Shown here piece after piece: positions 6,801 through 26,734 of a stretch of 64,000 bases of DNA. Under the pieces are notes generated by a model. It ran no database searches and was not told the DNA's origin. It was given only the letters and a program-made list of their open reading frames with translations. The translations under genes and the position numbers were made by a program. This DNA is from Planctomycetota bacterium (GTDB lineage Bacteria; Planctomycetota; UBA1135; UBA2386): assembly GCA_965223545.1 (NCBI GenBank), contig OZ245006.1, positions 3,360,001 to 3,424,000 on the forward strand, given 5' to 3'. The stretch's first letter is position 1, and the number at the start of each line of letters is the position of its first letter.

Positions 6801-6881
6801 ACGGTCGTCGGTCAGACAGAGCGCCAACCGCTGGAGCCACGCGGTCTCGGCCAGGAGCAGCTCGGTGGAAGACGAAGCCAC
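3813..6881 (-). CDS. ECF sigma-70 factor fused via a TM helix to repeated carboxypeptidase-regulatory-like domains
   Basis: Region 2 'AADLAQET', region 4 'VARRLGVPLETVRTRIKRG', hydrophobic 'VWIGAAVVAAAAVVFW', then repeated 'G.V....G.P.....V...TD..G.F' units. Confidence 0.85.
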   Translation of the reverse strand: MASSSTELLLAETAWLQRLALCLTDDRHLAADLAQETMLAALRAGPAVQQPRAWLATVARRIHGRGQRRERQRREIEQRSAVPGADADPAEVVDRALVHRAVVDEVLALSEPYRSALLLRYLEERPLTDVARRLGVPLETVRTRIKRGVAQLRARLDARHGSRAAWAVPVASGARAATSASLIGVGAMALQSKVWIGAAVVAAAAVVFWPNRSAADGVPAGSSAAEKSPVAPLDGDPPAGGAAPPAASRTEVASEAAPEPEPWAVRVVGTVVAEEDGAPLADVEVGWIETWPEGGARPSPERARTDRAGRFELRSRQANAWEHLELVVRAPGRARVERALSAPADPGAVPGELDAGVVSVPSGTGIAGRVLGADGVPVAGADLFVARHWIFTPARDGLSRRVPRLRRAGWAGRSADDGTFALEERFVPRRRDETVFAVSTEGVGWHAVSLTRERAERELDLRLQPRGQLEVVVRSSDGTAAAGAVVRCEPRFAPLGADLASDWQPGPHPAWAAVFEHRTDAAGTARFSALPRPDGAARYSLRVAFGGIVVRHRDVVPGTTAAEVVTVELPARTERVITGVVRAPSGVPLRGVAVEVHCDGVVRATTDAGGGFSVRVTPRGAATARVVATLDGYTRGTHRCELSGDGEPAPVELVLAPAAALTGVVQDQDGQPISGVHVSCVRTGAASIVGRTDERGRFRLEGLRAGVLHELSVSPPGPAWQRPEHHYARPEDSSITLIVQRRPPGRARLHARLLDARGVALDPGSRIRLLRRDDGERGLAHPATGTIGAIRASGLSAGLWVLRCRPPRGHAIEHEFAVAPGIELVELQLRQRPAAQLRGVVTVEAGSMPAPSRLRMRFAGVHRGRWAEMSTSPWLRAIDGGMEIDLEAGSTFAVGDVDPTRSLHIVAEEEAWAGMVRWQPGMTEPLRLVVRPVAHVVLRSEVPWPWPEVVLQWSRDGIEWDEPLHVGGVSGKTELLTWPRPAGRWHWRVRAPSVGRDNRAAPAARSGALDLGAGGETVLWLR

Positions 6882-7601: not shown

Positions 7602-10358
7602 TCAGCGCTTCGCGCGCGACTTGGCGCGCTCGAGCACCGAGGCCAAGTCGGCGCGCTGCCCGACGTCCCCGGCACCGGAAGCCCCGCCGGCGTCCGGCGC
7701 GAGGACCCCTGGCTCGAGGGCGGCCGACGTGCCTTCCTTGACCTCCGGACGCCCCGATTCGGCACGGGTCGGGCGCGCGGCGGTGCGCGGGCGCGGCCGC
7801 AAAACGGCGACGCGCGGCAAGCTCAGCTGCAAGCGACGAACCGCGATCTCCGCCAAGAGCAACACCAGCGCCAGCCACGCGCACCAGCGGTCCAACCGCG
7901 TCACTCCCGCACTGCGGCGCGGGCCCGCCATCAGCGCGGCCGCCGGCGGGTCGACCCGCCCCTCGGCGAGGGCGGCGATCTCCGCCAACACGCGCTCGCC
8001 GCGCCGGGGGTCGCGCTGCAGCTCGAACTCGGGCGAGTACGGCAGGGTCACCGGCGGCACGCGCAAGACTTCGCCACCGCCCATCGTCAGCGCCGGCCGG
8101 TAGACCCCCTCACCGCGCAGCGGGATTCGGCCCTCGAGCCGGTGCTCGTCGACGCGTTGCAGCCAGACCGTCTCGGCCTCACCGTCCGGCCCGAGAACCC
8201 GCGCCGAGACCTCGCCGAGCAACGCCGCCCGGCCCTCGTCGACCTCGACGCTCAGCACGGCTTCGTGGCCCTCGCGGCGCAAGGCGGCGAACAGCTCACC
8301 GCGCGCGTCGGTGCCGGCGATCCAACGCACCACGGTGGCAAAGAACCCGGCGAACCCGGGCCAAGTGCCGAGGCTGCCGCTGAGCTCCCCGTCGACTTCA
8401 CCGAGGAAGGCCGCGCTGCGACCGAGGCCGTGCTGCCAGAACGCCAGCAATGGCGCCTGCTGATCGTCGGCGGTGCGCAGCCCGACCTGCGCCGCCGGTC
8501 GCCGGTAGGCGATCGAATAGCCGCCGACGTTGGGAAACTCGCCGCGCGCGAGATCACCGAGCGCGACCAGATCGGGCAGCACCTGCACGGCGGTTGCCTC
8601 CTCGACCATCGACGAGCGCGCGACCTGAATCGTCTCTTGCGCGAAGACGCGCGGCAGGTCGGCGGCGTCGGTGACGAACGAACAGCGCCCGCCACCTCGC
8701 TTGGCGACGTCTTCCAAGAACGCGGCGTCGCTGTCGGTGTCGCTGCCGAGACCGATCACCGACACGGTGACGCCGGCGCGGCGCAGCTGCTCGATGAACG
8801 CGATGTAGTCGCCCGGCTCTTCGGCGTCGGCGGCGTCGGCAAACAGCACGATGTGCTTGTTGGCCTGCGGCGCATCCGCCAGCTGTTCCGCGGCGGCCAC
8901 CAGCGCCGTGTAGGTGTAGATACCGCCGCCGCCGGACTCGATGCCGAGAACATCGTCTTGGATCCGCCCAGCCTGGCGAGCGGACGTGCACGGCACGACG
9001 ACGTGCGGCGACGAGTCGACGGCGATCACCGCGACGTGATCGATCGGCCCCAACAAACCGATCGCCGCCGCGGTCCCTTGGTTGGCCAGATCCATCTTGG
9101 TCTCGCCCGACGGCACGGTCATCCCCATCGACCCCGACCGATCGAGGGCGATCGCCATCGCCAGAGCGAACTTGCGCTGCTCTTGGCGGACCTCCATCGT
9201 CACCGGCAGAGCCTCTTCGATCGGCGATCGGAAATAGCCGCCCGGTCCGAAGCTCGCTCCACCACCGGTCATCAGCAGCCCACCGCCGAGCTCGCGCACC
9301 CAATGCGCCAGCGCGCGCATCCCCCCGGCGGGAAGGTCAGCGGCGGCGACGTTCTCCAACACGACGGCGCGGACTCCGTCCAACGCGTCGAGCGACAGCG
9401 GCGCGGTCCGCGGCGCGGCGACTTGCACGGCGATGCCGGCCTGCGCCAGCGCCCGCGTCAATCGGTCTTGCCGCCCTCGAGGAGTCACGCACAGGACTCG
9501 AAACGCGCCGGCGACGCGCACCACCGCCCGCGCCCGGTTGTTCTGTGGCCGGGGATCGCCCTCGTCGGGCACCACTTCGACTTCGTAGCGGTGCACACGG
9601 GGCTCGCGCAGCGCGTCGCGAAACTGCACGCGGTTGAGTCCCGGTTGCAGCGCCCGCCGCCCCTCGGCGATCGGCACGCCGTCGCGCAGCAGTCGCACGC
9701 GGGCTTCGGCAGCGCGGTCGGCGCGCAACCACGCCGAGAACTGGAACGGCTCACCGGGACCGACTTCTTCCGGCGTCGCGACCTCCTCGACCGCGACGTC
9801 CATCCCGGCGGCTCGGCGGACGCCGACGACGTCGACGCGGATTCCGCGGCGCAGAGCCGCGCGGGCGGCGGCACTCGGATCGCCCCCGGTGTACTCGCCA
9901 TCGGACAGCACCAACAGCGATCCTTGCCGGCCCGGCGGGATCAGCGACAGACCGGCGTCGAGGGCCGACGCGAGATCGGTGGCATCCCGGTCCACGGTGC
10001 GCACCGGGGCGCGATAACGAAACTCCTCGGTAGGAGCGATCTCGACGACGGCTTCGCGGCCAAAGCCGATCATGCCGACACGATCGCCGGCGCGCGCTTG
10101 CTCCAACGCGAGTGCCGCCAACTCCTCGGCCCGCGCCAGCGTCTCGTCGGGCACCGACCGCGAGCGATCGACGAGCAGCACGAGATCTCTGCCGCTGGCC
10201 TCGCCGGTGACGAACGGGCCGGCCAACATGCCCAGGATCGCCAACAGGGCACCGATGCGCAGCAGGCCAACCAACGGTCGCGGCCACAACCGGCCGCGCA
10301 GCCAAAGCACCAGGACCGCGCCGAGCAAGAACACGTCGGGATGCTCGAACCCGATCAC
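7602..10358 (-). CDS. Membrane protein with two vWA domains and a class I glutamine amidotransferase-like domain
   Basis: MIDAS 'DRSRS' and 'DRSGS'; 'GGGLLMTGGGASFGPGG'; N- and C-terminal TM helices; GTGA overlap with the upstream gene. Confidence 0.88.
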   Translation of the reverse strand: MIGFEHPDVFLLGAVLVLWLRGRLWPRPLVGLLRIGALLAILGMLAGPFVTGEASGRDLVLLVDRSRSVPDETLARAEELAALALEQARAGDRVGMIGFGREAVVEIAPTEEFRYRAPVRTVDRDATDLASALDAGLSLIPPGRQGSLLVLSDGEYTGGDPSAAARAALRRGIRVDVVGVRRAAGMDVAVEEVATPEEVGPGEPFQFSAWLRADRAAEARVRLLRDGVPIAEGRRALQPGLNRVQFRDALREPRVHRYEVEVVPDEGDPRPQNNRARAVVRVAGAFRVLCVTPRGRQDRLTRALAQAGIAVQVAAPRTAPLSLDALDGVRAVVLENVAAADLPAGGMRALAHWVRELGGGLLMTGGGASFGPGGYFRSPIEEALPVTMEVRQEQRKFALAMAIALDRSGSMGMTVPSGETKMDLANQGTAAAIGLLGPIDHVAVIAVDSSPHVVVPCTSARQAGRIQDDVLGIESGGGGIYTYTALVAAAEQLADAPQANKHIVLFADAADAEEPGDYIAFIEQLRRAGVTVSVIGLGSDTDSDAAFLEDVAKRGGGRCSFVTDAADLPRVFAQETIQVARSSMVEEATAVQVLPDLVALGDLARGEFPNVGGYSIAYRRPAAQVGLRTADDQQAPLLAFWQHGLGRSAAFLGEVDGELSGSLGTWPGFAGFFATVVRWIAGTDARGELFAALRREGHEAVLSVEVDEGRAALLGEVSARVLGPDGEAETVWLQRVDEHRLEGRIPLRGEGVYRPALTMGGGEVLRVPPVTLPYSPEFELQRDPRRGERVLAEIAALAEGRVDPPAAALMAGPRRSAGVTRLDRWCAWLALVLLLAEIAVRRLQLSLPRVAVLRPRPRTAARPTRAESGRPEVKEGTSAALEPGVLAPDAGGASGAGDVGQRADLASVLERAKSRAKR

Positions 10359-12154
10359 AAAGGCCTCCCCAACACGAGCCAATCGAGAGCCGCGACCGCG
10401 AGCAGCAGAAGTGCCAGGATCCGCGCCGCCCATGGCGAGCGCTGCCGCCCGGCATCGTCGTCCGCACCGAGCGCGCGCTGCACCGAGGCATCGGGCTGCG
10501 TGCGCAGCGAAGCCGCCGCCGAGAGATCCGATTCGGCCGCGTCGACGAAGTGCACGGCGAACCGCGCGACCTGCTCGCCCTCGCGTTCGAGCACGTGCAG
10601 CCCCGGCACCGAAGCCTCCCACTCGAGCACCCGGCGGCCGCGCGCCGGCCGCGGACGGCCGCGCGGGTCGATCAGGCGCAGCTGGCGCGCCTCGTCGGGC
10701 GTGCCGGCGTGGCGAAACTGCAGCAGCTCCCCAACGCGGACGTTGGCGGCGACCACGCCGGGCAGGCGCGCGCGGGTCGCATCGACCACGTTGGCCAACA
10801 GGATCGGCCAGTCCGGCGACGCCGGCAGATTGGTCTGCAGCGGATCGAGGTTGAGCCAGAGGCGGAGCGCGTCGTCGCGCGCCACTTCGGTAAACAGCGG
10901 CTGCGCATCGGCGGAGATCAGTGGTGTGCCCTCCACCGCGCCCTGTCCTGCCGACCACACGACCCCATCGAGGGTGATGCCCTGCAGCACCCGGTGACGG
11001 CGCTCGATCAAGAACGGACCGATCCAGGCATCGCGCTCACCCTCCGCGGCGGCGATCACCAGCTCGGTGTGCCAGTCGCGGAGCACGCTCGGACTACTGC
11101 TCAAGACGAGGTGCGCGTGCTGCGGATCCGCGACGGCGCGCACATCACGCAGCGCCAGCAGGCCGCGCTCCAGCCGCAACGCCGCACTGGCCTCGTCGCT
11201 CAACAGGTTGGCCAGCGCCACCGTCCGCCGCAGCTCGGGCAACAGCAGCGCGCGGTTGTCGATCGCCAGCGGGTCGGCGCCGAGCACGACCTCGACCGGG
11301 CCCGACTGGCGCGGTACCGAAAGGCTCAGCCGGGTGGTCTTGTCGGCGGCGAGCTCGACGGTCTGGTGCACCAGCTCGACCTCCGGCGCGTCGCGGCCGG
11401 CGGACGCGACCACGCGCAGCGCGACCGCGGCCGCCGCTCCGCCGAAGGCGCGCAAGTCCACGTAGAGACGCTCGCGCTCGGGGTCGTCGGCCAGCGCCGT
11501 CCGGCGCGCGCCGACGATCGCGGCGTTGGTGGCAGGCACGCCGACCGCGACCACTTCGTAGCCGCGCACCGGCACGGAGCGCGGCGCGTGGTCGGTGACG
11601 AACACCAGAGGTCCTCCTTCCGCCAGCTGGCGCCCGAGATCGAGCGCCGGCCCCGGATCGTGCCCCGGCTGCCGCGGGTCGTAGCGCTCCAGCGCGCTGT
11701 CCAGCTGCGCGAGGGGGGCCCGGGGGCCGAGCCCGACGGCGGGGCGTGGACCGGTGCGGATCAGGGTCACGCGGGCGCCGGCAGGCTGCTCCGCGACGGC
11801 TTCTCGCACTGCGGCGCGCGCGCGTTCGGCCCAACTTGCACCGCCCGCCTCGGCCGCCATCGACGCGCTGTCGTCCAGCACGACGACACAGTGCACCGGC
11901 TGCGCGGCGCTACCGATGGTGAGCCCGCCGAGCCACAACGCCAACGCCAGCGCTGCGGCGAGCTCGAGCCACAGAGACGCGGTGCGCTGCAGCCGATCCC
12001 GGCGCCTCCCCGCCGCGGCCGCTTGGGCATCGGGCGCGAACAAGAACAAGCCAGCCACGCGGCGAGGGGCGCGCCGCCGGCGAAACAGGTGCAGAGCCAG
12101 CACCGCAGGCAGCGCCAACAAGGCGAGCAAACCCAGCGGTGTCGCGAAGCTCAT
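10355..12154 (-). CDS. BatA-like N-terminal double-TM vWA protein
   Basis: 'MSFATPLGLLALLALPAVLALHL', MIDAS 'DDSASM', C-terminal TM; ATGA overlap. Confidence 0.88.
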   Translation of the reverse strand: MSFATPLGLLALLALPAVLALHLFRRRRAPRRVAGLFLFAPDAQAAAAGRRRDRLQRTASLWLELAAALALALWLGGLTIGSAAQPVHCVVVLDDSASMAAEAGGASWAERARAAVREAVAEQPAGARVTLIRTGPRPAVGLGPRAPLAQLDSALERYDPRQPGHDPGPALDLGRQLAEGGPLVFVTDHAPRSVPVRGYEVVAVGVPATNAAIVGARRTALADDPERERLYVDLRAFGGAAAAVALRVVASAGRDAPEVELVHQTVELAADKTTRLSLSVPRQSGPVEVVLGADPLAIDNRALLLPELRRTVALANLLSDEASAALRLERGLLALRDVRAVADPQHAHLVLSSSPSVLRDWHTELVIAAAEGERDAWIGPFLIERRHRVLQGITLDGVVWSAGQGAVEGTPLISADAQPLFTEVARDDALRLWLNLDPLQTNLPASPDWPILLANVVDATRARLPGVVAANVRVGELLQFRHAGTPDEARQLRLIDPRGRPRPARGRRVLEWEASVPGLHVLEREGEQVARFAVHFVDAAESDLSAAASLRTQPDASVQRALGADDDAGRQRSPWAARILALLLLAVAALDWLVLGRPL

Positions 12155-12978
12155 GCCGGCTCCAGCATCCCCTGCGGCAACAAGTGGTGGCGGAACATCT
12201 CTTCGGGTGCCACCGCGGGCAGCAGAACGTAGCAACCCGCCGCCGCGCGCGTCGCGCTTTCGACCGCGTCGCGTAGACGCTGCAACCGCGCCCGATACCG
12301 GGCGCAGGCGCGCGCGTCGAGGACCAGCTCCAACCGACCGCCGTCCTCGCAGTCGAGCAACGCCGTGGCGCCCTGCTCCGTCGGCTCGAGCTCCCACGGG
12401 TCGAGCAGCTGCACGACGAACAGCTGCGCCGCGCCCGCCGCGAGCACGCGCAGCTCGGGGGCCAAGTCGCGCGGCATCAAGAAGTCCGACAGCACGACGC
12501 GCAGGCCGCGGGGACGCAACCGCTCGCGCGGCCGCAGATCGCGCGCGTCGTCTTCGAAACGAAGCGGCTCGGCCGGCGAAAACGCGCCACCGCCAGCGCT
12601 CAGCCAGCGCAGGCGAGCACCGACGCCCTCGCCCCAGACGTCGAGGGCAGCGAGCAAATCGCGAACGGCACGTTCTTTCGCGGGCGTCACCGCCATCGAC
12701 GGCGACCGATCGACGACCACCTCGAGCAGAGGCGCGACCTCTTCGCGGAACAGCCGCACGTGCAGCTGGTCGGTGCGCGCGTAGCCCCGCCAGTCGATGT
12801 GGCGGACGTCGTCGCCGGGCCGGTACTCGCGGAAGTCGGCGAACTCGAGCGACGCCCCGGTGCCGCGGCCGAGCCGCGCACCGGCGACCCCCGTCAACGC
12901 CGTCGTGCGCAGCGCCAAGCGGTAGCGGCGGGCCGCGCTCTCGGCCACGGCCTGCGGATCGGGTGGGGAGACCGCCAT
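12151..12978 (-). CDS. DUF58 domain protein
   Basis: 'GASLEFADFREYRPGDDVRHIDW', 'DRSPSM', 'LSDF'. Confidence 0.92.
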   Translation of the reverse strand: MAVSPPDPQAVAESAARRYRLALRTTALTGVAGARLGRGTGASLEFADFREYRPGDDVRHIDWRGYARTDQLHVRLFREEVAPLLEVVVDRSPSMAVTPAKERAVRDLLAALDVWGEGVGARLRWLSAGGGAFSPAEPLRFEDDARDLRPRERLRPRGLRVVLSDFLMPRDLAPELRVLAAGAAQLFVVQLLDPWELEPTEQGATALLDCEDGGRLELVLDARACARYRARLQRLRDAVESATRAAAGCYVLLPAVAPEEMFRHHLLPQGMLEPA

Positions 12979-12980
12979 CG

Positions 12981-14456
12981 TCACCGCCGCGCCGCCGTCA
13001 CTTCGCGCAGCCCCCTCCGCGCCGCCGGCAACATGGACAAGAGTACGAGACCGCAGGCAATGCCACCGGTGAGCAGCAACGGCTCGACGGGCGCGCGCGG
13101 CCGTTCGAGCGTCCAGAACGGGTTGGAGACGTGACCCAAGTGCCAGCGGTGCACGGTTCCCGTCAACGCCAACTCGACGAACAATGGCAACATGCAGCCC
13201 AGCGCGAGCAGGGCCAACGCCGCGGCGCGGGCAACCCAGTTCGCCCGCAGGCCCGCGCGCATGCGGCCGCGCACCAGCCGACCGAGCCCACAGTAGAAGA
13301 ACGCGTAGGCCCAGATGGCGAACGCGACGCCCCACATCTCGCCCACCCAGGATCTCGGCGAACCGGTTGCCGTCGCTCGGAGCACGGCAGCCACGCCCCA
13401 CACCAACGCACTGCTGCCGATCACGAACAGCACGCCCCGGCCACCACCGGGCAACAGCGGCGCCGCGGCCACGGCCATCCACCGGTTGCGGGGGAGGTGC
13501 GCGGCGACGCGCGGCGACAATGGCTCCTCCTCGGTGAGAGCGAACCACCAGATCGGAATCAACGAAGCCGCTCCCATGATCACCAAGGCGGGCGCCATGA
13601 CGTGGTAGTCGTTCGTCGACACGGCACTGACGATCCAGATCAGCGCGACCACCAGCAACCCGATCCAAAACACGCGAAACGGCGTCGAACGGTTCTCGTG
13701 GGCGTGCGTCAGCAGACTGCCCGCCATCAGCATCAGCAGCACCAGGCCGCATACCGACGCCGTGACGAAGACCCCCATCCCCAACCAGAAATCTGAGTCG
13801 CGCATCAGCCGGCCGACCTCGTTGACCAGCTCCCAACTGGCGGCCATCAGCGCCCCGGTGATCCCGGCCAGGCCGGCAGACGTCAGACCGAACACGACCG
13901 GCGTGAGCACTCGGATGCGCGACACCGCCCCCATGGTGATCGCGAAGGCCACCGCCAGAACGCTGACCAGCACTGCCATCGCCAAGAAGAACAGAATCGT
14001 CGGCACGTCGGTGCCGCGCAGCAGGAAGGTCATCGCCAGCAGCGGACCGAACACCGACAGGAACAGACCCAGCTGCACCATGGTCGCGACGATCTTGCCG
14101 CGCACGATCCGCCCGGGCGTCAATCGGCTGAGCAAGAGCTGCTCGCTGACACCCGCGCGCAGCTCCTGGCTCATCGACACGAAGGCCTGCAGCGGAATGA
14201 AGAACGTCGCGATCGGCACCAGCATCACCAGAGCGGCGGTGAATGCCTCGCGGCCGATGTGCTGACCGGTCGCACCACGCATGCCGACGTAGAACGCCAC
14301 CGCACAGATCGCGGCCAGCGCGGTGCTCATCAGCACGATGAACGCCTTGCTGCTCAACACCTGCTGCGTCTCGCGCACCAGAAGCGGGTTGAGTCGATCG
14401 GAGAGCCGCTGCGCCCAGCTCACTCGGGTCGGCGCCGGGTCGGCGTGGTCGGTCAC
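12981..14456 (-). CDS. ABC-2 type transporter permease-like membrane protein
   Basis: 'NPLLVRE', multiple TM helices, 'IVRGK'; adjacent to an ABC ATPase. Confidence 0.8.
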   Translation of the reverse strand: MTDHADPAPTRVSWAQRLSDRLNPLLVRETQQVLSSKAFIVLMSTALAAICAVAFYVGMRGATGQHIGREAFTAALVMLVPIATFFIPLQAFVSMSQELRAGVSEQLLLSRLTPGRIVRGKIVATMVQLGLFLSVFGPLLAMTFLLRGTDVPTILFFLAMAVLVSVLAVAFAITMGAVSRIRVLTPVVFGLTSAGLAGITGALMAASWELVNEVGRLMRDSDFWLGMGVFVTASVCGLVLLMLMAGSLLTHAHENRSTPFRVFWIGLLVVALIWIVSAVSTNDYHVMAPALVIMGAASLIPIWWFALTEEEPLSPRVAAHLPRNRWMAVAAAPLLPGGGRGVLFVIGSSALVWGVAAVLRATATGSPRSWVGEMWGVAFAIWAYAFFYCGLGRLVRGRMRAGLRANWVARAAALALLALGCMLPLFVELALTGTVHRWHLGHVSNPFWTLERPRAPVEPLLLTGGIACGLVLLSMLPAARRGLREVTAARR

Positions 14457-15391
14457 TGCAGCCTCCCGGCGGTCGTGCGCATGAAGATGTCCTCGAGATC
14501 TGCATCCTCGACGCGGAACTCGACGACCGGAATCGACTCGGCGACGGCGCGCGCCAACAGCGCCGACAGCTCCTGCTCGTCGCCGGCGAAGTCGAAGCGC
14601 ACTCGACTTCCGTCGACCACGGCCTTGTCGACGTGGGGCTGCAGCAGAAAGAACCGCAGCGCCACCTCCAGGTCACCGAGAGACCGGACGCTGACCGAGT
14701 GGTGCTCCTGCACCGACCGAGCAATGCTGGCGATGTCGCCGGCGATCACCTGTCGGCCGCGCTCGAGCACGATCACCGCATCACAAGTCTCGGACAACTC
14801 CGAGAGGATGTGCGACGAGATCAGGATGCACTTGCCAGCCGACGCCAGCTCGCGCAGCAGCTCGCGGAACTCGATCCGCGCGCGCGGGTCGAGCCCCGAG
14901 GCGGGCTCGTCGAGGATCAAGAGGGCCGGGTCGTGCAGCAGCGTCTTCGCCAGGTGCAAGCGCTGGCCCATCCCCTTGGACAGCCCCTTCGCCGGCCGCT
15001 CGGCAAACTCGAGCAAGCCGCAGAAGCTGGCGACCGAGCGCACGGTGTCGATCCTCGCTTTGCCCCGTAGGCCATAGGCGCGGGCGAAGAAGTCGAGGAA
15101 CTGCATCACATCGAGATTCGGATACGGGACGAACTGATCGGACATGAAGCCGACCCGCATGCGCACCGTGCGGGGCTCGACCAGGACCGACACCCCCTCG
15201 ATCAGCGCATCGCCCTCGTCCGGCAGATCCAGTGTCGCCAGAATCCGCATCGTGGTGGTCTTGCCGGCTCCGTTGGGACCGATGAAGCCGTGCACCCCAC
15301 CGCTCGAAAGCGTGAACGACAAGTCGTCGACGGCGGTGACCTTGCCGTAGCGCCGCGTCAGGTTGCGCACTTCGACGAGCGCGCTACTCAA
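14453..15391 (-). CDS. ABC transporter ATP-binding protein
   Basis: Walker A 'GPNGAGKTT', signature 'LSKGM', Walker B 'LILDEP', H-loop 'SSH'; probable TTG start. Confidence 0.93.
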   Translation of the reverse strand: MSSALVEVRNLTRRYGKVTAVDDLSFTLSSGGVHGFIGPNGAGKTTTMRILATLDLPDEGDALIEGVSVLVEPRTVRMRVGFMSDQFVPYPNLDVMQFLDFFARAYGLRGKARIDTVRSVASFCGLLEFAERPAKGLSKGMGQRLHLAKTLLHDPALLILDEPASGLDPRARIEFRELLRELASAGKCILISSHILSELSETCDAVIVLERGRQVIAGDIASIARSVQEHHSVSVRSLGDLEVALRFFLLQPHVDKAVVDGSRVRFDFAGDEQELSALLARAVAESIPVVEFRVEDADLEDIFMRTTAGRLQ

Positions 15392-17194
15392 CGAAGTCCT
15401 CCTCCGACAGGACCCCCCGCACCAAGTGCAGCGACGCCAGCTCATCGACCGCGAGGTCGAAGTCGACGACCGCGGGCGAGCGCTCGACGATGGCCAGGTA
15501 GGTCCCCGGTTGGGGGGTCACCGCGTCGGCAAACAGATCGGCGAGTTCCTCCAGCCGGTCTCCCCGGGGATCGCCGGACTCCGTGCCCGCCAACCGCGCC
15601 CACTGCAGGAGATCGTTGAGGTGGCTGCGGACTGCGCCTGCGTCGACGGTGGTCATCACGCCATCCGCTTCGCTCAGGTAGAACCTCCCATCGAAGTCGA
15701 TCAGCAACACCGCCCCGGCGCGATCCACCGGCACCAGATCCGGCGCGGAGGCCGGCACGATGCTGCCGTCCGACTGCCGCTGGAAGCGAAGCCGGGCACG
15801 GCATGTGCCCTGGTCTACCGTGGTCAGCGAAGTCGGGGTACGCGACGGCAGCAGCGTGCCCGACACCCGACCCGCGTCGAGGTCGAAGTCGAGCGCATGA
15901 CCTCCGGCCCGGTTTCGCCGGTCGCCGAGCAACTCGAGCGAGTCGACGAACGTGCCCGCGCGAAGTGTCAACCAGGTCGGCGCCAGCCCCGCGTACAGAG
16001 TGCGGTTGGCGACCGCCACCGCGGTGTGCGTGCGCTGGTCGAGGAGCGTGATCGACCGCCCGACGCCCTTGGTGCCCAACCCCTCGGAGAACAAACCGAA
16101 CAGCACCAACAGACCGGTGGCGACGACGCCGATCGCCGGCACCGTGACCAACATCAACATCGGCTGCTTGCGCCGGCGGGCGAACATGTGGTTCAGCGGC
16201 CCGACGAGGATCGCGAACAGCAGGATCACGAAGAAGAACGCGCGGGTCGGCACTTCGCCGAGACCCGGGATGTGCAGTCGCGAAGCGACCGAAGGCGCCA
16301 CTGGCCCGACCCAATCGCGCTTTCCAGCCGTCGAGAATTCCGACTGCATCGCCTGACGCAGGTCGGCCGGGCCATCGTCGTCAATCGCCTCCGCCGCATA
16401 CCAAGTACCGAACCCATGCTGCCCAGTGGTCAATCCCTCGGCCGCGGCCGCGCCAACCAGCTCGCGCACCGCCCCGGGCGGCAACGCCGCCGGGTGCAGC
16501 ACCAGCAGCCGCCCGCCACCCGCCACGTGCTCGACCAAAACCCGCTGCTGCGCGCCGTCGATCCGCGCGCCACCGTCCAGTACCACCAAGTCGAAGCCGC
16601 TCAGCCATTGCCAGCTGTCGGGCATCATCTCGGGCGTCACCGCCGGCATCGCCGCGATGGCGGTCTTCGCCCGGCGATAGCGGCTCAGCGTGTGCAAGAC
16701 GGAGTGTGCCCAACGGTCCATGGGCGCCTGACAAGCCGGCGCGAACCGCACCGGGTCCTCGCTGACGCACAGCACTACCAAGCCGACGCGCCCCACGTCG
16801 AGATCGACGTTGGCGTAGGCGCCGCCACGGACTCCAGCGAGCTCGAGGGTCACGTCGGCGCCGTAGCGGTCACCGGACGGCAACGGGATCAACGTGCGCG
16901 CCCGCTCTCCAGCGGCCAGCGGCACGGTGCGCTCGCACGAGTAGGGCGCCGCCCGCCACCCACGCGTCTCCACCCGCAGCCGCGCCTCGCGGGGTTCCGC
17001 AGTGCGGTTCTCGAGAGCGACCCAGGAGTAGCCGTAGCCTCCGGGCAACGCCGAGCCCGGGAAGCCGTACATCGTCGCGGTGATGTCGTGACCTCCGCCA
17101 ACGCCTCCGCCGAGGGTGATGCCGATGCTCTCGACCCACTGGGCGGGCAGTGCGGCGGCCGTAGCCAGGAGCGCGCAAGCACGCGCGCATCGCT

Positions 17195-17198
<4 letters not shown>
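15384..17198 (-). CDS. Hypothetical exported/membrane protein of the MoxR-vWA operon
   Basis: Signal peptide, GATase-like 'DLVVLDG...VAGGGRL', two central TM helices; overlaps both neighbours. Confidence 0.7.
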
Positions 17199-18235
<1,037 letters not shown>

Positions 18236-18239
18236 GCGT

Positions 18240-19664
18240 TCAGTTGCCCTTCGATTCGCCGGTGAAGAAACGACGCACGACGGCACGATGGTGCGGCGCC
18301 ACGCGCCGCCGCCACGACGCCTCGCCGCCACCGCCGGCCGGGGCCGCGCTGCCCGCGCCGGCGGCGCGCTCCGGATCGGTCTGCGGCGCCACCCGGTTCA
18401 CGCCGGTCACTTGCCACTCCCTGGAGATCGCGCGCCCCCGCGGCAGCCGTGTCGCCTTCGGCGGGGTCAGCAATTCAGTGTCGTTGGTGTAGTTCAGCTG
18501 CGCTGGCCCGGGTCCACGGCTGATGCCATTGCGGCCCGGCACGCTGCCCGGTTGACCGCCGCCGGGCACGCCGGCGCAGTTGCCACCCGCTCAACCGGGC
18601 CCGTGTTGGTGGCCCGGGTCCGCCGCGGCGAGATCGGCCTTGGCGGCGGCGACCGCGCTGGCGAGATCGGCGAGCTCACCGGGATCGACCAGACCGGCCG
18701 CCCCCAGATCGGCGAGCGGCGCGTCGAGCGCGTCCCCCATCGCCGCCGCCAGCGCGGCGAGCTGGTCGGCGCTGTCCGGCAGCTGGCCGACGTCGATCTC
18801 CTGCCCAGCGCTCAGCCCGAGCTCGCCGAGCAAACCCGGGTCCATGGTGTCCAGCAGGCCGGCCTGGCGCGCCTGCTCGAGCGCCTCGGCCATCGACTCG
18901 GCCAGCGCACCGGCGGCACTGTCGGCATCGTCGCGGCGGGCCGCCGCCTCCAGCTGCGCGAGGGCGTGGCGCGCGCGCTGCGCATCGTCCGCCCGCTGGT
19001 GCTCGAACCGCTCCAGCTGCGCCTCGAGACTGTCGACATCGGCCCACTCGACGGGATCGCCGGCGAGCTGCTGCTCGCGCAGCTCCTCGATCTTGGCCAC
19101 CAGCTCCTCGACCTGCTCGTCGGCGAGGATGCCCTCGGTGCGGCGCTCCTCGGCGCGCTCCTCGAGGAGGTCCAAGGCGGCGGCCACCGGGGTGTCGAGC
19201 GAAGGCGCCGGTCGAACCGCGGGCGGCGGCAGCCAGAGAATCAGGCCGATGGTGACGGCGACGGCGAGGACGGCTCGCCCCCAGCGCCGGCGGTCATAGC
19301 CGGGCAGCCACTCGTCAGCCGCGCCGAGCCGCCGCGAGAGCTCCTCTCGCCACGCGGTGTTGTCGCGCTCCACGCCCGCCAACAACAAGCCGCCCAGCCG
19401 CAGGCGGTGGTCGACCTCGACGATGGCACGGCCAGGGCCGAAGCCGCTGGCGTGAACCCGCCACGCGCCGAACCCCATGATCGGAATCACCGCCAGGGTC
19501 CACCAAGGTGACGGCGTCGGCCAAAGCCCGAACAGCCGACCAACCAGCACGACGAACAGCGCCACCCCGCAGCCCCAAAGTGCCGCCCGCGCGGCCCCGT
19601 CGACGAAGACGGCGGAGCGCACTCGACGGAGAAACTGCTTGGTTTCGAGGTGGCCGACGGGCAT
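18240..19664 (-). CDS. Membrane-anchored coiled-coil protein with an in-frame TGA at codon 358 (possible Sec/recoding, or nonsense)
   Basis: ORFs 18591-19676 and 18240-18569 are in the same frame, separated only by TGA 18593-18591 (GGT TGA GCG GGT GGC AAC TGC). Three N-terminal TM segments and an acidic helical middle; the read-through tail ends 4 nt before the moxR ATG. Confidence 0.7.
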
Positions 19665-19782
19665 CGCGAGCCCCACAACGGGCAGCGCGCCAGTCTATTC
19701 CCGAGCAGTCGGCGATCGGGGAGCAGAAGTTCTGCTTTTGCCCTGCGCTTACAGAGGCGTCTCGTGCGGCATGCTGGCTGCC

Positions 19783-20676
19783 TCAGTCGCGGTCGTCGCC
19801 CCGCAGGGCCGGCACGCCGTAGAACTCGCAGATTCGCTGGCGCACGGCTTGGTCGCGCGGGTCGACCCCGCCGGCTTCCAACTGTGGCGCGTCGGCGAAT
19901 GCCCCCGCCGGGCGCGCGGTCGCCAGCCCCGGCGCGCCGTGGTCGTCGTGCTGGACTTCCAGCAGCTGCCACGGAATCAACACGGTGCGCGCGGGCGCCT
20001 CGGCCCCGCGCGCAGCGACGGCGACGAACGCGAGCGCACACGAAGAGTCACCGGCGAACCACAACGAATGCACCAAGCCGAAGTCGGCGTCGGCGGCGCG
20101 CAGAGGACAACCGACCAAATCCGACGCGCGCATCGCCTGCGGCTGCCGCGCATCGCCTTCGGCAGGCCGGGATTCTCCTTCGGAGCCCGCCTCGGCGACA
20201 TCCCGGTCGGTCTGCCCGGCCTCGACGTCGGTCTGTTTCTCGATGGCTGGCAGGGCCGCGATGGCCGCCGGACTCATTGCCGAGCGGAAGCTACCGGCGT
20301 CCGCGTCCCAACCGAGCATGTCCCAAGCGATGCGCACGTGACGCGGCTCGGCCTCGCGCTCTGCGGCGGACTCCGGCGCCTCGCATTCGAGCAACACATC
20401 GCCGATCGCGCCGGTGCGCGGGTCGATCCACACGTCGCGCACTCTGCCCAGCACCTCGCGCTCCGATCCCTCGAGGCCATTGCTGACGACGACGCCCAAC
20501 ACCGCGGTGTGCGGCAAGACCAGCGGGCCGTCCTTCGCCGCCGCATCCTCCACCACCGGCTCGCCCGTCGCGGGCTCCTGGCCGCGCTCCTGCGCGCGGA
20601 TGCCAGCACCGGCCCACGCACCGATCGCCGCGCAGAGCAGCGCCGACTTCAACTTCTTCGAGATGACTGAGTTCAT
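19783..20676 (-). CDS. Exported tandem PRC-barrel protein
   Basis: Signal peptide; two PRC-like units 'LGRVRDVWIDPRTGAI...IAW' and 'RASDLVG...FGLVHSL...LIPW'. Confidence 0.7.
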   Translation of the reverse strand: MNSVISKKLKSALLCAAIGAWAGAGIRAQERGQEPATGEPVVEDAAAKDGPLVLPHTAVLGVVVSNGLEGSEREVLGRVRDVWIDPRTGAIGDVLLECEAPESAAEREAEPRHVRIAWDMLGWDADAGSFRSAMSPAAIAALPAIEKQTDVEAGQTDRDVAEAGSEGESRPAEGDARQPQAMRASDLVGCPLRAADADFGLVHSLWFAGDSSCALAFVAVAARGAEAPARTVLIPWQLLEVQHDDHGAPGLATARPAGAFADAPQLEAGGVDPRDQAVRQRICEFYGVPALRGDDRD

Positions 20677-20902
20677 GATGACCGTCCGTTTCTTGGTTCC
20701 GCGATGGCTCGGGGCCCGATCCTCGCGTCGGGTTGCCAAGACCGGCCGCCGACGACCGCGTTAGCTGCCGCCCGGCGTCGTCGCATCGGGAAGATCGCGG
20801 CGCAGAATCGGGACGGTTCGCGGATCGCATCGACGACATCTCGCCGACAACAGTGCGGCCAACTCGTTAGCCCGGAGCCGGCGCGGGTCGGGAGGCAGGG
20901 CC

Positions 20903-23240: not shown

Positions 23241-23846
23241 TCAAGGCGACTCCGGCGACTCCGGCTCCGCGAGACGATCGGCCAACCGCGCCAGGCCACG
23301 GTGCAGCATCATCCGCACCGCGCCCTCGGTCTTGCCGACCTCCTGGGCAACCGCGCGCCGGGACAGACCGACCACGCGCGACAGGATCACGACCTCGCGC
23401 ACCTCGTCGGGCAGGGTCTGGATCGCGTCTTCGACCCGCGCCAACTCCTCGCGCGCCGCGGCGTCCCGGCTGGGGGTGTGCAGGTTGCCATAGCACGCCA
23501 GTGCGGCATTGAGGTCCTCCGCCCCGGCCGGAGCGACTTCGGCCGCGCGCTTCTTGGCCGCATAGAACGCATGCCGGTCGAGGACCTTGCGCTGCGCCGT
23601 CTTGAACAGCCAGCGCCGGAAGCCGTCCTCCCCGTCGTAGCGAAACCGGTCGAGGTTCTCGAGCACGTCGCGGCAGACGGACTGGGCCAGATCGGAGGCC
23701 GACTCCTTGTCGAGCAGCCCCCGCCCGGCGCGCAGCCGCAGGTAGGCCCGGACGCTGGGCAAGAACCGGTGCAACAGTTGGTCGACCGCTGGCGCGTGTC
23801 CGGCGGACGCTTGCTCGACGAGTTCTCTTTGGCGGTCGACCGGCAT
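23241..23846 (-). CDS. ECF sigma-70 factor
   Basis: 'ESASDLAQSV', 'FRRWL', 'VAQEVGKTEGAVRMMLHRG'. Confidence 0.92.
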   Translation of the reverse strand: MPVDRQRELVEQASAGHAPAVDQLLHRFLPSVRAYLRLRAGRGLLDKESASDLAQSVCRDVLENLDRFRYDGEDGFRRWLFKTAQRKVLDRHAFYAAKKRAAEVAPAGAEDLNAALACYGNLHTPSRDAAAREELARVEDAIQTLPDEVREVVILSRVVGLSRRAVAQEVGKTEGAVRMMLHRGLARLADRLAEPESPESP

Positions 23847-23899
23847 GTGGCGCTCAGGCGGAGTGGACGCCCGCGGGGATCAGTGTAGCCTGGGGCATC

Positions 23900-26734
23900 G
23901 TGAGCGGAAACGAGAGGTCCTCCGCCGAGATCGTCCGCCTGCTCGAAGAGTGCCTGGATGCGCGCGAACAGGGCGGCGAAGCCGCAATGGAGACCCTGAT
24001 CGCGAGCCGACCCGAGCACGCGGCCGCGATCCGTGCGCGGCTCGACGCCTTGTCGCGGACCGGCCTGCTCGACGGTGATGGCGAGATGCCGGAGCGGCTC
24101 GGCGATTTCCGCCTCATCGAGCCGATCGGCAGCGGCGGCATGGGTGTGGTCTACCTGGCCGAGCAAGAAAGCGTCGGGCGCCGGGTCGCGGTCAAGCTCG
24201 TGCACCCCGAGCACCTGTTCTTTCCCGGCGCGCGCGAGCGCTTTCGCCGGGAGGTCGAGGCGGTGCGTCGTCTCGACCACCCCGGCATCACCCCGGTCTA
24301 CGCCGTCGGTGAAGCCGATGGCGTGCCCTACTTCGCGATGGAGCACGTCGCCGGGGTGAGCCTGGACAACGTCTTGGCCGCGCTGCGCGGCAAGCCGCCG
24401 GAGACCCTCGACCGCGGCGACTTGTTTCGCACCTCGCCGGATGTGGCACCACGGGAAGAGACCACTCTGCCGGAATCTTGGGTCGACGTCTGCTTCACCC
24501 TCGCTCGGCAGATCGCGGAAGCCCTGGCGCACGCCCACGAGCGCGGCGTGCTGCACCGCGACGTCAAGCCATCCAACATCGTGCTCACGCACGAGGGTCG
24601 CATCCGCCTGCTCGACTTCGGCCTCGCCCGGTCCGAGGGCGACATCCGCATCACCCGCACCGGGTCGGTGCTGGGGTCGCTTCCGTACATGGCTCCGGAG
24701 CAAGTCCGCGGCGATACGCGGCTCATCGGTCCGCGGACGGACGTGTACGGCGTCGGCGTCACCCTCTACGAGCTGCTGACCTTGCGGCCCGCGTATTGGT
24801 CGGAGACCACCGAGCGCACCCGGCGCCGCGTGCTCGACGGCCAACCCGTGTCGATCGAACGACTCAACAGCGCGGTGCCGCGCGATGCCGAGACCATCTG
24901 CCGAAAGGCAATGGACTTCGACCCGGCGCACCGCTACGCGAGCATGGCGGCGTTGGCCGTCGACCTCGGCCGCTTCCTGCGCCGCGAACCGGTCGCCGCG
25001 CGCCGCCCTGGGCACGGCGTTCGGTTGCGACGCTGGGCCCAGCGGCGACCGACGCTGGCGACGGCGCTGACCCTCGGCTCACTGCTGGTCGTCGGTGGAC
25101 CGATCGGATTCGCAGTCCAGTCCGAATCCGCCCGTGCGGAGATCTCCACCGCGTACCAGGCCGAGGCCGAACAACGCCTGCGCGCGGAAACCGAGCTCGA
25201 GTCCGTGATCGCCGCGATCGACGAGATGCTGGCGGCGGCAACCGACGCCGAGTTGATTCGAACCCCCGGCGGCGACGCGGTACGGCGAAGAATGCTGGAG
25301 AGCGCGCGCAGAATGTACGAGGGCTTGCTGGCGCGCGAGCAAGAGCGACCCGGTGTCGCCCGGCGCGTCGCGACCACGCAACAGAAGTTGGCGCAGCTGC
25401 ACCTGCAGCTCGGCTCGGTCGAGCCGGCGCGGGAAGCGGCGCGCGCCGCGGTCGCCGTCGCAGGCCGACTGGGCCCGGGCGTACCGGGCGCGGAAGAGCT
25501 GCCGTTCTCGGTGGCCCTGCGCCTCATCGAGGTGCTGATCGACACGGCCGAGATCGACGAGGCCATCGAGCGCATCGGCGTTCAGCTCGACGAGTTGCAC
25601 GGATTCGAGGACGCCGGGCTGGACGCGCACGCCGAACGGCGCCGCCAGCTGTGGTTGGCGCGCGCCTGGGACGCGCTGAGCGAAGCCCGCTTGCGCCGCC
25701 GCGAGATCGAGGCCTCCCTGGACGCGGCCCGCAAGTCGATTTCCGCCTACGAACTTGCCGGTGCCGCGGATGCCAGCGCGGAGGTTCGGATCTACTACGC
25801 GCGACGACTCGAGTTCAACGCCTACATCGGCGGTTTCCACGGCCTGGAACCCGACTACGCCAATCTGTTCGAACGCGCCAACGCGCTGCGCCGTGGAGTG
25901 ATGCAAGAGGACCCGGGTGAGATCGCCGTGCGCTTCGGGCTCGGCGAATCACAAGCGAAGTGGGCGCACATCGAGCTGAAGCGCAGGCAGTGGGCGCCGG
26001 GGATCGAGCGGTCACAGCAAGCTCACGAGACCCTGGTCGCTCTGGCCGATGATTTCCCCGGTCGACCGCGCTACGTCGAAACCCTGCTCGGCAACGTCGC
26101 CCGCCTGGGCTACGCCCTGGAGAAGGACAACCGGCGAGAGGAGGCGATCGAGGTGCTCAGAGATGGCCTGGACCGCGCGATCGCCGCAACCCAGCGCCAC
26201 ACCATCATCGACTTTCGCTATCACGAGGCCGTCCTGAGCGGATCGCTCGCTGCCCAACTCGGACGTGCGGAGAGGCCCGACGAGGCCGAGCCGTACTGGG
26301 AACAGTCGCGCAAGGCTTGGGAGTGGTTGATGCGCCAGTCACGGCCGAGCTTGGAGCACGTGATGCAGGTCGGAGTCCACTACGACCAACGCGCGCATTT
26401 CGAGTACGCCCACGACCGCCACGAGAAGGCCCTGGCTCTGGCCGCGCTAGCCTGCAAGTACCATCGCCTCGCCCACGAGCGCGCGCGCATGGCCGTGTCG
26501 ATCGACCGGCTCGGGAAGTCGCTCGTACTAATGGCCGCCATCGAGATGGCCCTCGACCACCCCGCGCAAGCGGTCGCGCGGCTCGCAGAGGCCGTGCGCG
26601 AAGCCGGCGTCACCCGCGACCGGATCGAGAGACAAGTGTTCCGGCCGCTGGCCGGGCGCGCGGACTACCGCAGCGTGCTCGATGAAGCTCCGCTGAGCAC
26701 CGAGGCAGGGACGAACACGCGCAAGAGCCGGTAG
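23900..26734 (+). CDS. Hanks-type Ser/Thr protein kinase with TM helix and TPR-like C-terminus
   Basis: 'IGSGGMGVVY', 'VAVK', 'HRDVKPSN', 'DFG', 'YMAPE', 'DVY'. Confidence 0.93.
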   Translation: MSGNERSSAEIVRLLEECLDAREQGGEAAMETLIASRPEHAAAIRARLDALSRTGLLDGDGEMPERLGDFRLIEPIGSGGMGVVYLAEQESVGRRVAVKLVHPEHLFFPGARERFRREVEAVRRLDHPGITPVYAVGEADGVPYFAMEHVAGVSLDNVLAALRGKPPETLDRGDLFRTSPDVAPREETTLPESWVDVCFTLARQIAEALAHAHERGVLHRDVKPSNIVLTHEGRIRLLDFGLARSEGDIRITRTGSVLGSLPYMAPEQVRGDTRLIGPRTDVYGVGVTLYELLTLRPAYWSETTERTRRRVLDGQPVSIERLNSAVPRDAETICRKAMDFDPAHRYASMAALAVDLGRFLRREPVAARRPGHGVRLRRWAQRRPTLATALTLGSLLVVGGPIGFAVQSESARAEISTAYQAEAEQRLRAETELESVIAAIDEMLAAATDAELIRTPGGDAVRRRMLESARRMYEGLLAREQERPGVARRVATTQQKLAQLHLQLGSVEPAREAARAAVAVAGRLGPGVPGAEELPFSVALRLIEVLIDTAEIDEAIERIGVQLDELHGFEDAGLDAHAERRRQLWLARAWDALSEARLRRREIEASLDAARKSISAYELAGAADASAEVRIYYARRLEFNAYIGGFHGLEPDYANLFERANALRRGVMQEDPGEIAVRFGLGESQAKWAHIELKRRQWAPGIERSQQAHETLVALADDFPGRPRYVETLLGNVARLGYALEKDNRREEAIEVLRDGLDRAIAATQRHTIIDFRYHEAVLSGSLAAQLGRAERPDEAEPYWEQSRKAWEWLMRQSRPSLEHVMQVGVHYDQRAHFEYAHDRHEKALALAALACKYHRLAHERARMAVSIDRLGKSLVLMAAIEMALDHPAQAVARLAEAVREAGVTRDRIERQVFRPLAGRADYRSVLDEAPLSTEAGTNTRKSR

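Follow-up and report, generated by a model that had tools for sequence, protein, structure and literature searches.

Our analysis identifies the lead gene of a MoxR/vWA operon in a Planctomycetota genome as, very probably, a real gene of an uncatalogued selenoprotein family. An in-frame TGA at codon 358 is, with high probability judging from the sequence, decoded by SelB as selenocysteine (Sec). In-frame TGAs in the same His/Cys linker motif occur at 82 loci (81 genomes and one metagenome contig). Our study adds a selenoprotein family that is widespread in the sample, is truncated by annotation, and has been missed by Cys/Sec searches; the probable cause is that its Sec falls within low-complexity linker sequence of a protein without a name. 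Positions refer to the window, i.e., the whole 64,000-nucleotide stretch of DNA analysed (Table 1).

Table 1. Positions in the window of the gene, its elements, and its operon partners
Feature	Position	Strand	Remarks
Full gene	18240..19664	minus	474 aa with codon 358 as Sec; operon lead gene
Three predicted membrane helices	19227..19601	minus	about residues 22-46, 55-73, and 127-146; AF2 helices
His352-x-His354-x3-Sec358-x4-Cys363 motif (Sec predicted)	18576..18611	minus	flexible linker; low to moderate pLDDT
In-frame TGA (predicted Sec358)	18591..18593	minus	aligns with Cys in P0004, P0028, and P0018 and with TGA in L284
Likely bSECIS	18560..18576	minus	6-bp all-GC stem CGCCGG/CCGGCG, loop CGTGC from +20 nt, -9.8 kcal/mol
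Hairpin of the initial annotation, TGCCCGG/CCGGGCA	18545..18568	minus	-12.9 kcal/mol
C-terminal tail G-x3-W-RRR-x-APHHR-x-VVRRFF	18261..18326	minus	conserved; made only with TGA read-through
MoxR AAA+ ATPase (AAA_3)	17195..18235	minus	PF07726, E=1e-60; 4 nt after the stop
604-aa accessory protein	15384..17198	minus	apparent signal peptide and membrane hairpin; no family; position conserved
ABC ATPase	14453..15391	minus	DrrA/GldA-like, below curated cut-offs
Probable ABC permease, multi-pass membrane	12981..14456	minus	inferred from position and hydrophobicity; no family match
DUF58 protein	12151..12984	minus	PF01882
BatA_N and vWA membrane protein	10355..12157	minus	PF07584, PF13519
Large membrane protein, two vWA-like DxSxS motifs	7602..10361 (start approximate)	minus	read from translation

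The in-frame TGA and its continuation

The frame around codon 358 reads CAC CAA CAC GGG CCC GGT TGA GCG GGT GGC AAC TGC (HQHGPG*AGGNC) and stays open for 116 further codons, up to a terminal TGA placed 4 nt before the moxR ATG. GC3 is 0.887 upstream of TGA358 and 0.845 downstream of it. The initial annotation, made from the letters alone, had described just such an open continuation with normal codon usage and an end 4 nt 5′ of moxR, and the sequence confirms both. It had also advised a check for an assembly error at the TGA. Logan contigs of runs X1 (18025-19800) and X4 (18025-18798, depth 284) run across the site and show 0 differences from the window. Both samples come from a single study, which may be the source study, and the inspected pieces of X5 and X6 fail to bridge TGA358. 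Short-read contigs of two samples thus read TGA, and the codon is real.

Gene callers end the protein at this codon, and its database form (P0027) is cut at residue 357. This would suit a TGA that is a true stop, splitting the gene or marking a pseudogene, or one that is otherwise read as Cys, Trp, or Gly. The part downstream of the TGA had been thought to lack a start of its own. No ATG is indeed present, yet an ORF of 109 aa can be read from a GTG at 18569, which may be its start. This is again in keeping with a true stop, as is the weakness of the hairpin in this single gene. The family-wide evidence given below speaks against both ideas, and we regard them as very improbable and already largely refuted.

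Distribution of the TGA among homologues

With the read-through protein as query, 20 of 60 relatives gave matches, mostly over both halves. A profile of 18 sequences extended the search to 133 of 301 genomes of the order, 76 of 401 genomes of the phylum, and 3063 cluster representatives. An in-frame TGA in the linker was present in 73 order genomes, including the host genome G000 (130 of the 133 profile-matching genomes were examined), and in 8 of the 34 genomes examined outside the order. A metagenome contig with an in-frame TGA (L284) completes the count. Duplicates (L041, L233, L235, and L238), a frameshifted locus (L158), and a partial second copy (L042) were dropped before counting; the fragments G184, G190, G214, and L167 (of G225), as well as nine of 43 phylum genomes, stand outside the count. 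The possibility, raised earlier, that the TGA is unique to this assembly is thus removed by 81 other loci. Within the family to which the window belongs, the TGA is found in only 2 of 45 matching genomes. L284 was the one true homologue among 63 matches of a motif-pattern scan of metagenomes. In the genome-contig collection, all 49 matches of the motif-pattern scan were due to chance, and a single-protein scan gave no match.

A true stop is hard to reconcile with a TGA kept in 82 loci at 22 to 35% protein identity, aligned with Cys and then followed by a hairpin; the stop at the motif was never TAA or TAG in the loci examined. Nor is there a conserved restart codon: within 20 codons past the TGA, an ATG is found at 20 of the 82 sites and a GTG at 36. 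Where homologues lack the TGA, they consist of one uninterrupted ORF with Cys at the corresponding position and not, as had been considered, of two separately initiated genes. Many database proteins end abruptly at ...C-x-GGT, and the motif usually takes the form H-x-C-D-E-x-C-x2-4-GGT-U-[SKR]-G-x-G. Seven loci have two TGAs in one gene.

Neither Cys nor Sec is present in the linker of 40 of 123 classified homologues, and the motif is, judging from these sequences, dispensable in many lineages. Some members deviate in other ways. In one lineage (L084, L127, L129, L135, L136, L137, and L160), extra ligands follow the Sec (GG[TS]-U-x5-CxxC), and the SECIS stem overlaps the Cys codons. Long variants of about 630 to 780 aa have Gly/Gln-rich linker inserts (L162, L166, L172, L163-L165, and L170); three of them keep a Sec (P-U-[CM]-G) and the others have none.

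Exchange of predicted Sec and Cys in the linker motif

All four states of H-x-H-x3-[C/U]-x4-[C/U] were observed. Cys occupies both positions in P0004 (HVHGPEC-VGGN-C), which is 41% identical to the read-through protein over 467 aa, and in P0028 and P0018. The C..U state is found in L058 (HVHGPEC-AGGT-U), L063, and L086, the U..U state in L284 (HKHGPGU-AGGG-U), and the rarer U..C state in the present gene. The initial annotation had proposed to look for TGA at codon 358 in some lineages and Cys in others. The sequences bear this out in part: three homologues have Cys and L284 has UGA at the same position, but the 80 further loci have it at the partner position or nearby, most Secs being at the position of Cys363. 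The linker of P0028, which is labelled Planctomycetota, is identical to that of L237, from a genome of the same phylum.

In a FastTree tree of 132 sequences, built on the 327 columns before the motif, the gene groups by topology alone with P0004, L086, L284, P0034, P0066, and P0077. The last three are proteins cut at the first motif position, which is only suggestive of a Sec at the position used here. Sec, Cys, and motif-free states are interleaved on the tree, with 19 parsimony changes. Two or more extra Cys residues occur in 47 of 60 classified Sec members, and a Gly follows the last Sec at +2 in 78 and at +4 in 67 of the 82 loci. The pattern CxxC...(C)xxU-x-G-x-G of L228-L232, together with these common glycines, resembles CxxCxGxG, the repeat of the DnaJ-type zinc finger. 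The likeness is one of pattern only, and the present gene has His-x-His instead of the first CxxC.

Selenocysteine machinery of the host

The host genome (8.1 Mb, 2 contigs, 91% complete) has selA, selB, selD, and tRNA-Sec, all above curated cut-offs, as the initial annotation had asked to be checked, and selD contains an in-frame TGA of its own, in GGG*AAK. Only tRNA-Sec has a UCA anticodon among 64 predicted tRNAs. A genetic code with TGA as a sense codon is excluded because TGA also ends this gene normally. Read-through as Cys, which the initial annotation had kept as an alternative, is disfavoured since the sole UCA tRNA is tRNA-Sec and the SECIS signal tracks the TGA.

In the order sample, selA is present in 59 of 60 relatives, so its co-occurrence with the TGA carries little information there. 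It was also found in 61 of 65 further TGA carriers, the four without a match being genomes of 83 to 89% completeness. Among genomes from outside the order, 8 of the 16 with selA carry the TGA (one partial, at a contig edge), versus 0 of the 18 without selA; we attach no p-value to this association because kin are not independent. An apparent internal TGA in the selA-less genome G304 was its terminal stop, and in G403 no in-frame TGA lies within the model span. In four genomes, three of them from one genus, selA is only about 13 to 17 kb from the family gene (G156:C1, G163:C200, G273:C4, and G217:C25); in G087, the distance is about 40 kb.

The candidate SECIS hairpins

UGA is decoded as Sec when SelB-GTP-Sec-tRNA acts together with a hairpin. 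The initial annotation had pointed to the stem TGCCCGG/CCGGGCA as this element. The stem does begin 22 nt past the TGA, but its folding is not above that of shuffled sequences (z of +0.92, -0.65, and +0.89; not significant), and another hairpin, at 18560-18576, fits the family pattern better. The two overlap and are mutually exclusive. The latter reaches a pair probability of up to 0.97 in short windows and 0.03 in long ones, where the former is favoured. On sequence grounds, the hairpin at 18560-18576 is the likelier SECIS.

A loose bSECIS model, derived from the consensus in Fig. 2 of PMC13188914, was passed by 69 of 82 sites, but half (50%) of the synonymous controls passed too, as did 31 of 112 true stops and, for the present gene, 9 of 12 synonymous recodings. 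At this GC content, the model discriminates poorly. A strict test, run with our own script and not with bSECISearch, demands a perfect stem of at least 6 bp and a 3- to 5-nt loop with G[G/U], 17 to 26 nt from the UGA. It was passed by 59 of 82 last-TGA sites, versus a synonymous mean of 8.4 (maximum 17, 200 rounds), an enrichment that is somewhat optimistic because the distance window and loop pattern were chosen after seeing the hairpins. True TGA stops passed in 1 of 112 cases, linker Cys codons of Sec-free homologues in 2 of 101, and neither of the Sec-to-Cys revertants L079 and L099 passed.

The hairpin at 18560-18576 passes the strict test, but so do 12% of 5000 synonymous recodings, so the SECIS of this gene taken alone is not significant. 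The Rfam SECIS_2 model gave no match at the locus. In L284, the first Sec is followed by a hairpin at +22, nearly the place seen here, and the second by a weaker 5-bp hairpin at +23, which suggests that the hairpin follows the position of the Sec. The family-type hairpin at +20 also led us to abandon an earlier idea, in which the hairpin was just a relic serving the Cys363 position. Taking the evidence together, the four observations named at the outset as contrary to Sec (reads without the TGA, a TGA unique to this assembly, missing Sec machinery, and separately initiated halves) all came out negative, which supports the reading of TGA358 as Sec.

Operon context

The order gene-moxR-accessory-ABC-permease-DUF58 is conserved. 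Where at least 1.5 kb of downstream sequence was available (98 loci), MoxR was present in 94, followed in frequency by the ABC ATPase (87), the accessory protein (81), the permease (75), and DUF58 (67), the later genes often lying beyond the fetched DNA. The host has eight further MoxR paralogues (G000:C1 177280, 4132368, 4621532, 4813654, 5774121, 6010389, 7205331, and 7406071), and a homologue of the Sec protein occurs only beside the present moxR. Upstream, a secreted PRC-barrel protein is encoded at 19783-20739 (minus strand); it is near none of the homologues and is therefore placed outside the operon. Elsewhere in the window, translations suggest an apparent GNAT acetyltransferase fused to a carbon-nitrogen hydrolase domain (686-2400, minus), an ECF sigma factor fused to a long membrane-anchored domain (3813-6881, minus), and an ECF sigma gene adjoining a Ser/Thr kinase gene (23241-26734).

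Protein architecture

The predicted helices and the neighbouring MoxR agree with the earlier description of a MoxR-associated membrane protein. By hydropathy, 71 of 125 homologues have three transmembrane segments and 47 have two; this protein has two at the threshold used. Lys/Arg counts (N-terminal 5.1, loop 1 1.0, and loop 2 9.5) suggest an N-in topology, from which we infer that the C-terminal domain is periplasmic. An AF2 model with 91 sequences (mean pLDDT 82, pTM 0.57; a model with 18 sequences was weaker) predicts three N-terminal hydrophobic helices, a helical domain up to residue 347, a poorly defined motif linker, and a last helix at 457-468. Modelled without metal, residues 351-360 have a pLDDT of about 57 and residues 365-401 fall below 50. 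In the tail, G447, P457, H459, R460, V463, and F467 are near-invariant among 91 sequences.

Database comparisons gave no name to the protein. NCBIfam 20.0 contained 0 families at E<=1, Pfam 0 families for P0001, and a profile scan of 52 homologues none over cut-off. Foldseek gave no match with E<=0.001; VIA-align, which covered mainly residues 154-324, returned generic helical bundles (best Z 9.4), and a PDB sequence search only coiled-coil noise (best E 0.0019). An Atlas search with the homologue P0004 led to unnamed clusters only, from Planctomycetota and Verrucomicrobiota. A link to DUF4175 (PF13779) was unsupported, as the genome search matched only another locus, below cut-off. Two adjacent genes at G000:C1:4103259-4105803 (L334 and L335) are weakly DUF4175-like, and L335, with CxxxC and CxxC in Gly-rich linkers, may be a distant Sec-less analogue.

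A proposed model for the probable selenoprotein and its machine

In the explanation that we favour, SelB-GTP-Sec-tRNA would bind the short hairpin about 20 nt past UGA358 and insert Sec, yielding one 474-aa selenoprotein. Three membrane helices would anchor it, and a helical bundle (residues ~155-347) would reach into the periplasm, followed by the flexible His-x-His-x3-Sec-x4-Cys linker and the conserved basic tail. The protein would most likely be a scaffold subunit of an envelope machine in which MoxR/DUF58 would act as the cytoplasmic remodelling ATPase, the accessory protein would accompany an ABC exporter, and vWA proteins would face the periplasm. The part of PMC5700661 on a Borrelia member places its vWA domain in the periplasm. 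Taken as a whole, a Sec protein with a metal/redox knuckle in a MoxR/vWA/ABC envelope scaffold is moderately probable.

For the motif itself, chances are roughly balanced that it forms a four-ligand metal-binding knuckle whose Se/S ligands can also be switched by redox. The swapping of ligands among H, C, and U, the pattern of L228-L232, and the extra Cys residues of most Sec members support a metal site. The oxidising periplasm counts against it, since Se-S or S-S bonds are favoured there over metal thiolates. Since the motif has been lost in many relatives, its role would be one of fine-tuning on which the machine does not depend.

A purely redox function is an appreciable though less likely alternative. 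Here, a U-x4-C selenenylsulfide centre would shuttle or sense periplasmic electrons, and the His residues would only lower the pKa. A Sec/Cys pair that swaps through four states at a fixed 4-residue spacing fits such a centre, as does the predicted periplasmic location. Sections of PMC11834572 and PMC5700661 tie Bat/MoxR clusters to survival of oxidative stress, and the part of PMC13188914 that catalogues selenoproteins has mostly redox-type ones. However, no thioredoxin-like or other catalytic fold was found, and a flexible linker with three to four or more ligands at variable spacing is more than a dithiol needs. The idea that Bat proteins supply reducing power is itself called unproven in a passage of PMC5700661.

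The Sec could instead be mainly regulatory: at low selenium, translation would stop at 358, giving a tail-less protein and uncoupling moxR translation. The conserved tail does lie 3′ of the TGA, the distance from the stop to the moxR start is a few nt in this operon and short at most loci, and several members have two stacked TGAs. Yet Cys versions keep the ligand motif in both selA-bearing (L237) and selA-lacking genomes. Therefore, chemistry at the residue is favoured, and a mainly regulatory role seems quite improbable.

Beyond the metal/redox knuckle, a more far-reaching proposal is tentative: a selenium-ligated metal/redox switch on a periplasmic tether may control the MoxR/vWA/ABC machine of Planctomycetota, Sec and SECIS may move together, and read-through may couple selenium to translation of the whole operon. 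If true, this switch would give, for the first time, chemical access to the signals that MoxR/DUF58/vWA clusters detect. The MoxR/DUF58/vWA envelope machine is poorly understood, and a very probable Sec family is now tied to such a machine; with Sec in the lead gene, the unproven periplasmic redox or metal role of these clusters becomes testable. Furthermore, the C/U pair comes in four natural states that each have a hairpin position of their own, a natural experiment on the origin and movement of a Sec codon and its SECIS.

Comparison with known systems

The initial annotation knew of no described selenoprotein of this type, and our comparison agrees: the family is absent from the 119 prokaryotic selenoprotein families in Table 1 of PMC13188914 and from NCBIfam 20.0. 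The main texts of deep-Sep (PMC12013277) and BSepDB (PMC13326102) mention neither MoxR nor Planctomycet, the family table of BSepDB being outside this scope. Passages of these two works and of the SAO preprint do not describe the family, nor did a literature search find it described; 'selenoprotein' with 'MoxR' led to one unrelated review, candidates from groundwater MAGs being outside the search.

With SelB/bSECIS selenoproteins, of which E. coli fdhF is the prototype, the family shares the in-frame UGA, selA/B/C/D, Cys homologues, and a hairpin within the ORF, with a G in the apical loop, 16 to 37 nt downstream. In contrast to them, the Sec here would belong to no enzyme fold: it would lie in the flexible linker of a helical protein anchored in the membrane, and it changes position within the motif. 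The double selenoproteins TsoB (UxxxxU), MbdU, and NF041115 likewise have paired Sec/Cys as proposed metal ligands, and the U-x4-U spacing of TsoB is that of L284; the NCBIfam models of TsoB, MbdU, NF041115, and SAO gave no sequence match. The SAO system (SaoP/SaoB), in the sections of bioRxiv 10.1101/2022.07.06.499078 that describe it, likewise associates Sec with an ABC transporter. That system, however, serves import in anaerobes and has its Sec residues in the permease and binding protein, whereas the ABC system here is exporter-like and the Sec would be in a separate scaffold beside MoxR/vWA.

The closest operon likeness is to the Bat (Bacteroides aerotolerance) and MoxR-proper operons, which combine MoxR, DUF58, and BatA-type vWA with TPR proteins; MoxR (AAA_3), DUF58, and a BatA_N-vWA gene occur together here as well. 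Oxidative-stress phenotypes of Bat-type MoxR/DUF58/vWA operons are reported in parts of PMC5700661 and PMC11834572. No TPR (BatC/BatE) or BatD gene was found among the six downstream genes scanned. Beyond the Bat set, the present cluster contains an ABC ATPase and a permease, the 604-aa accessory protein, and, encoded by its lead gene, a very probable selenoprotein.
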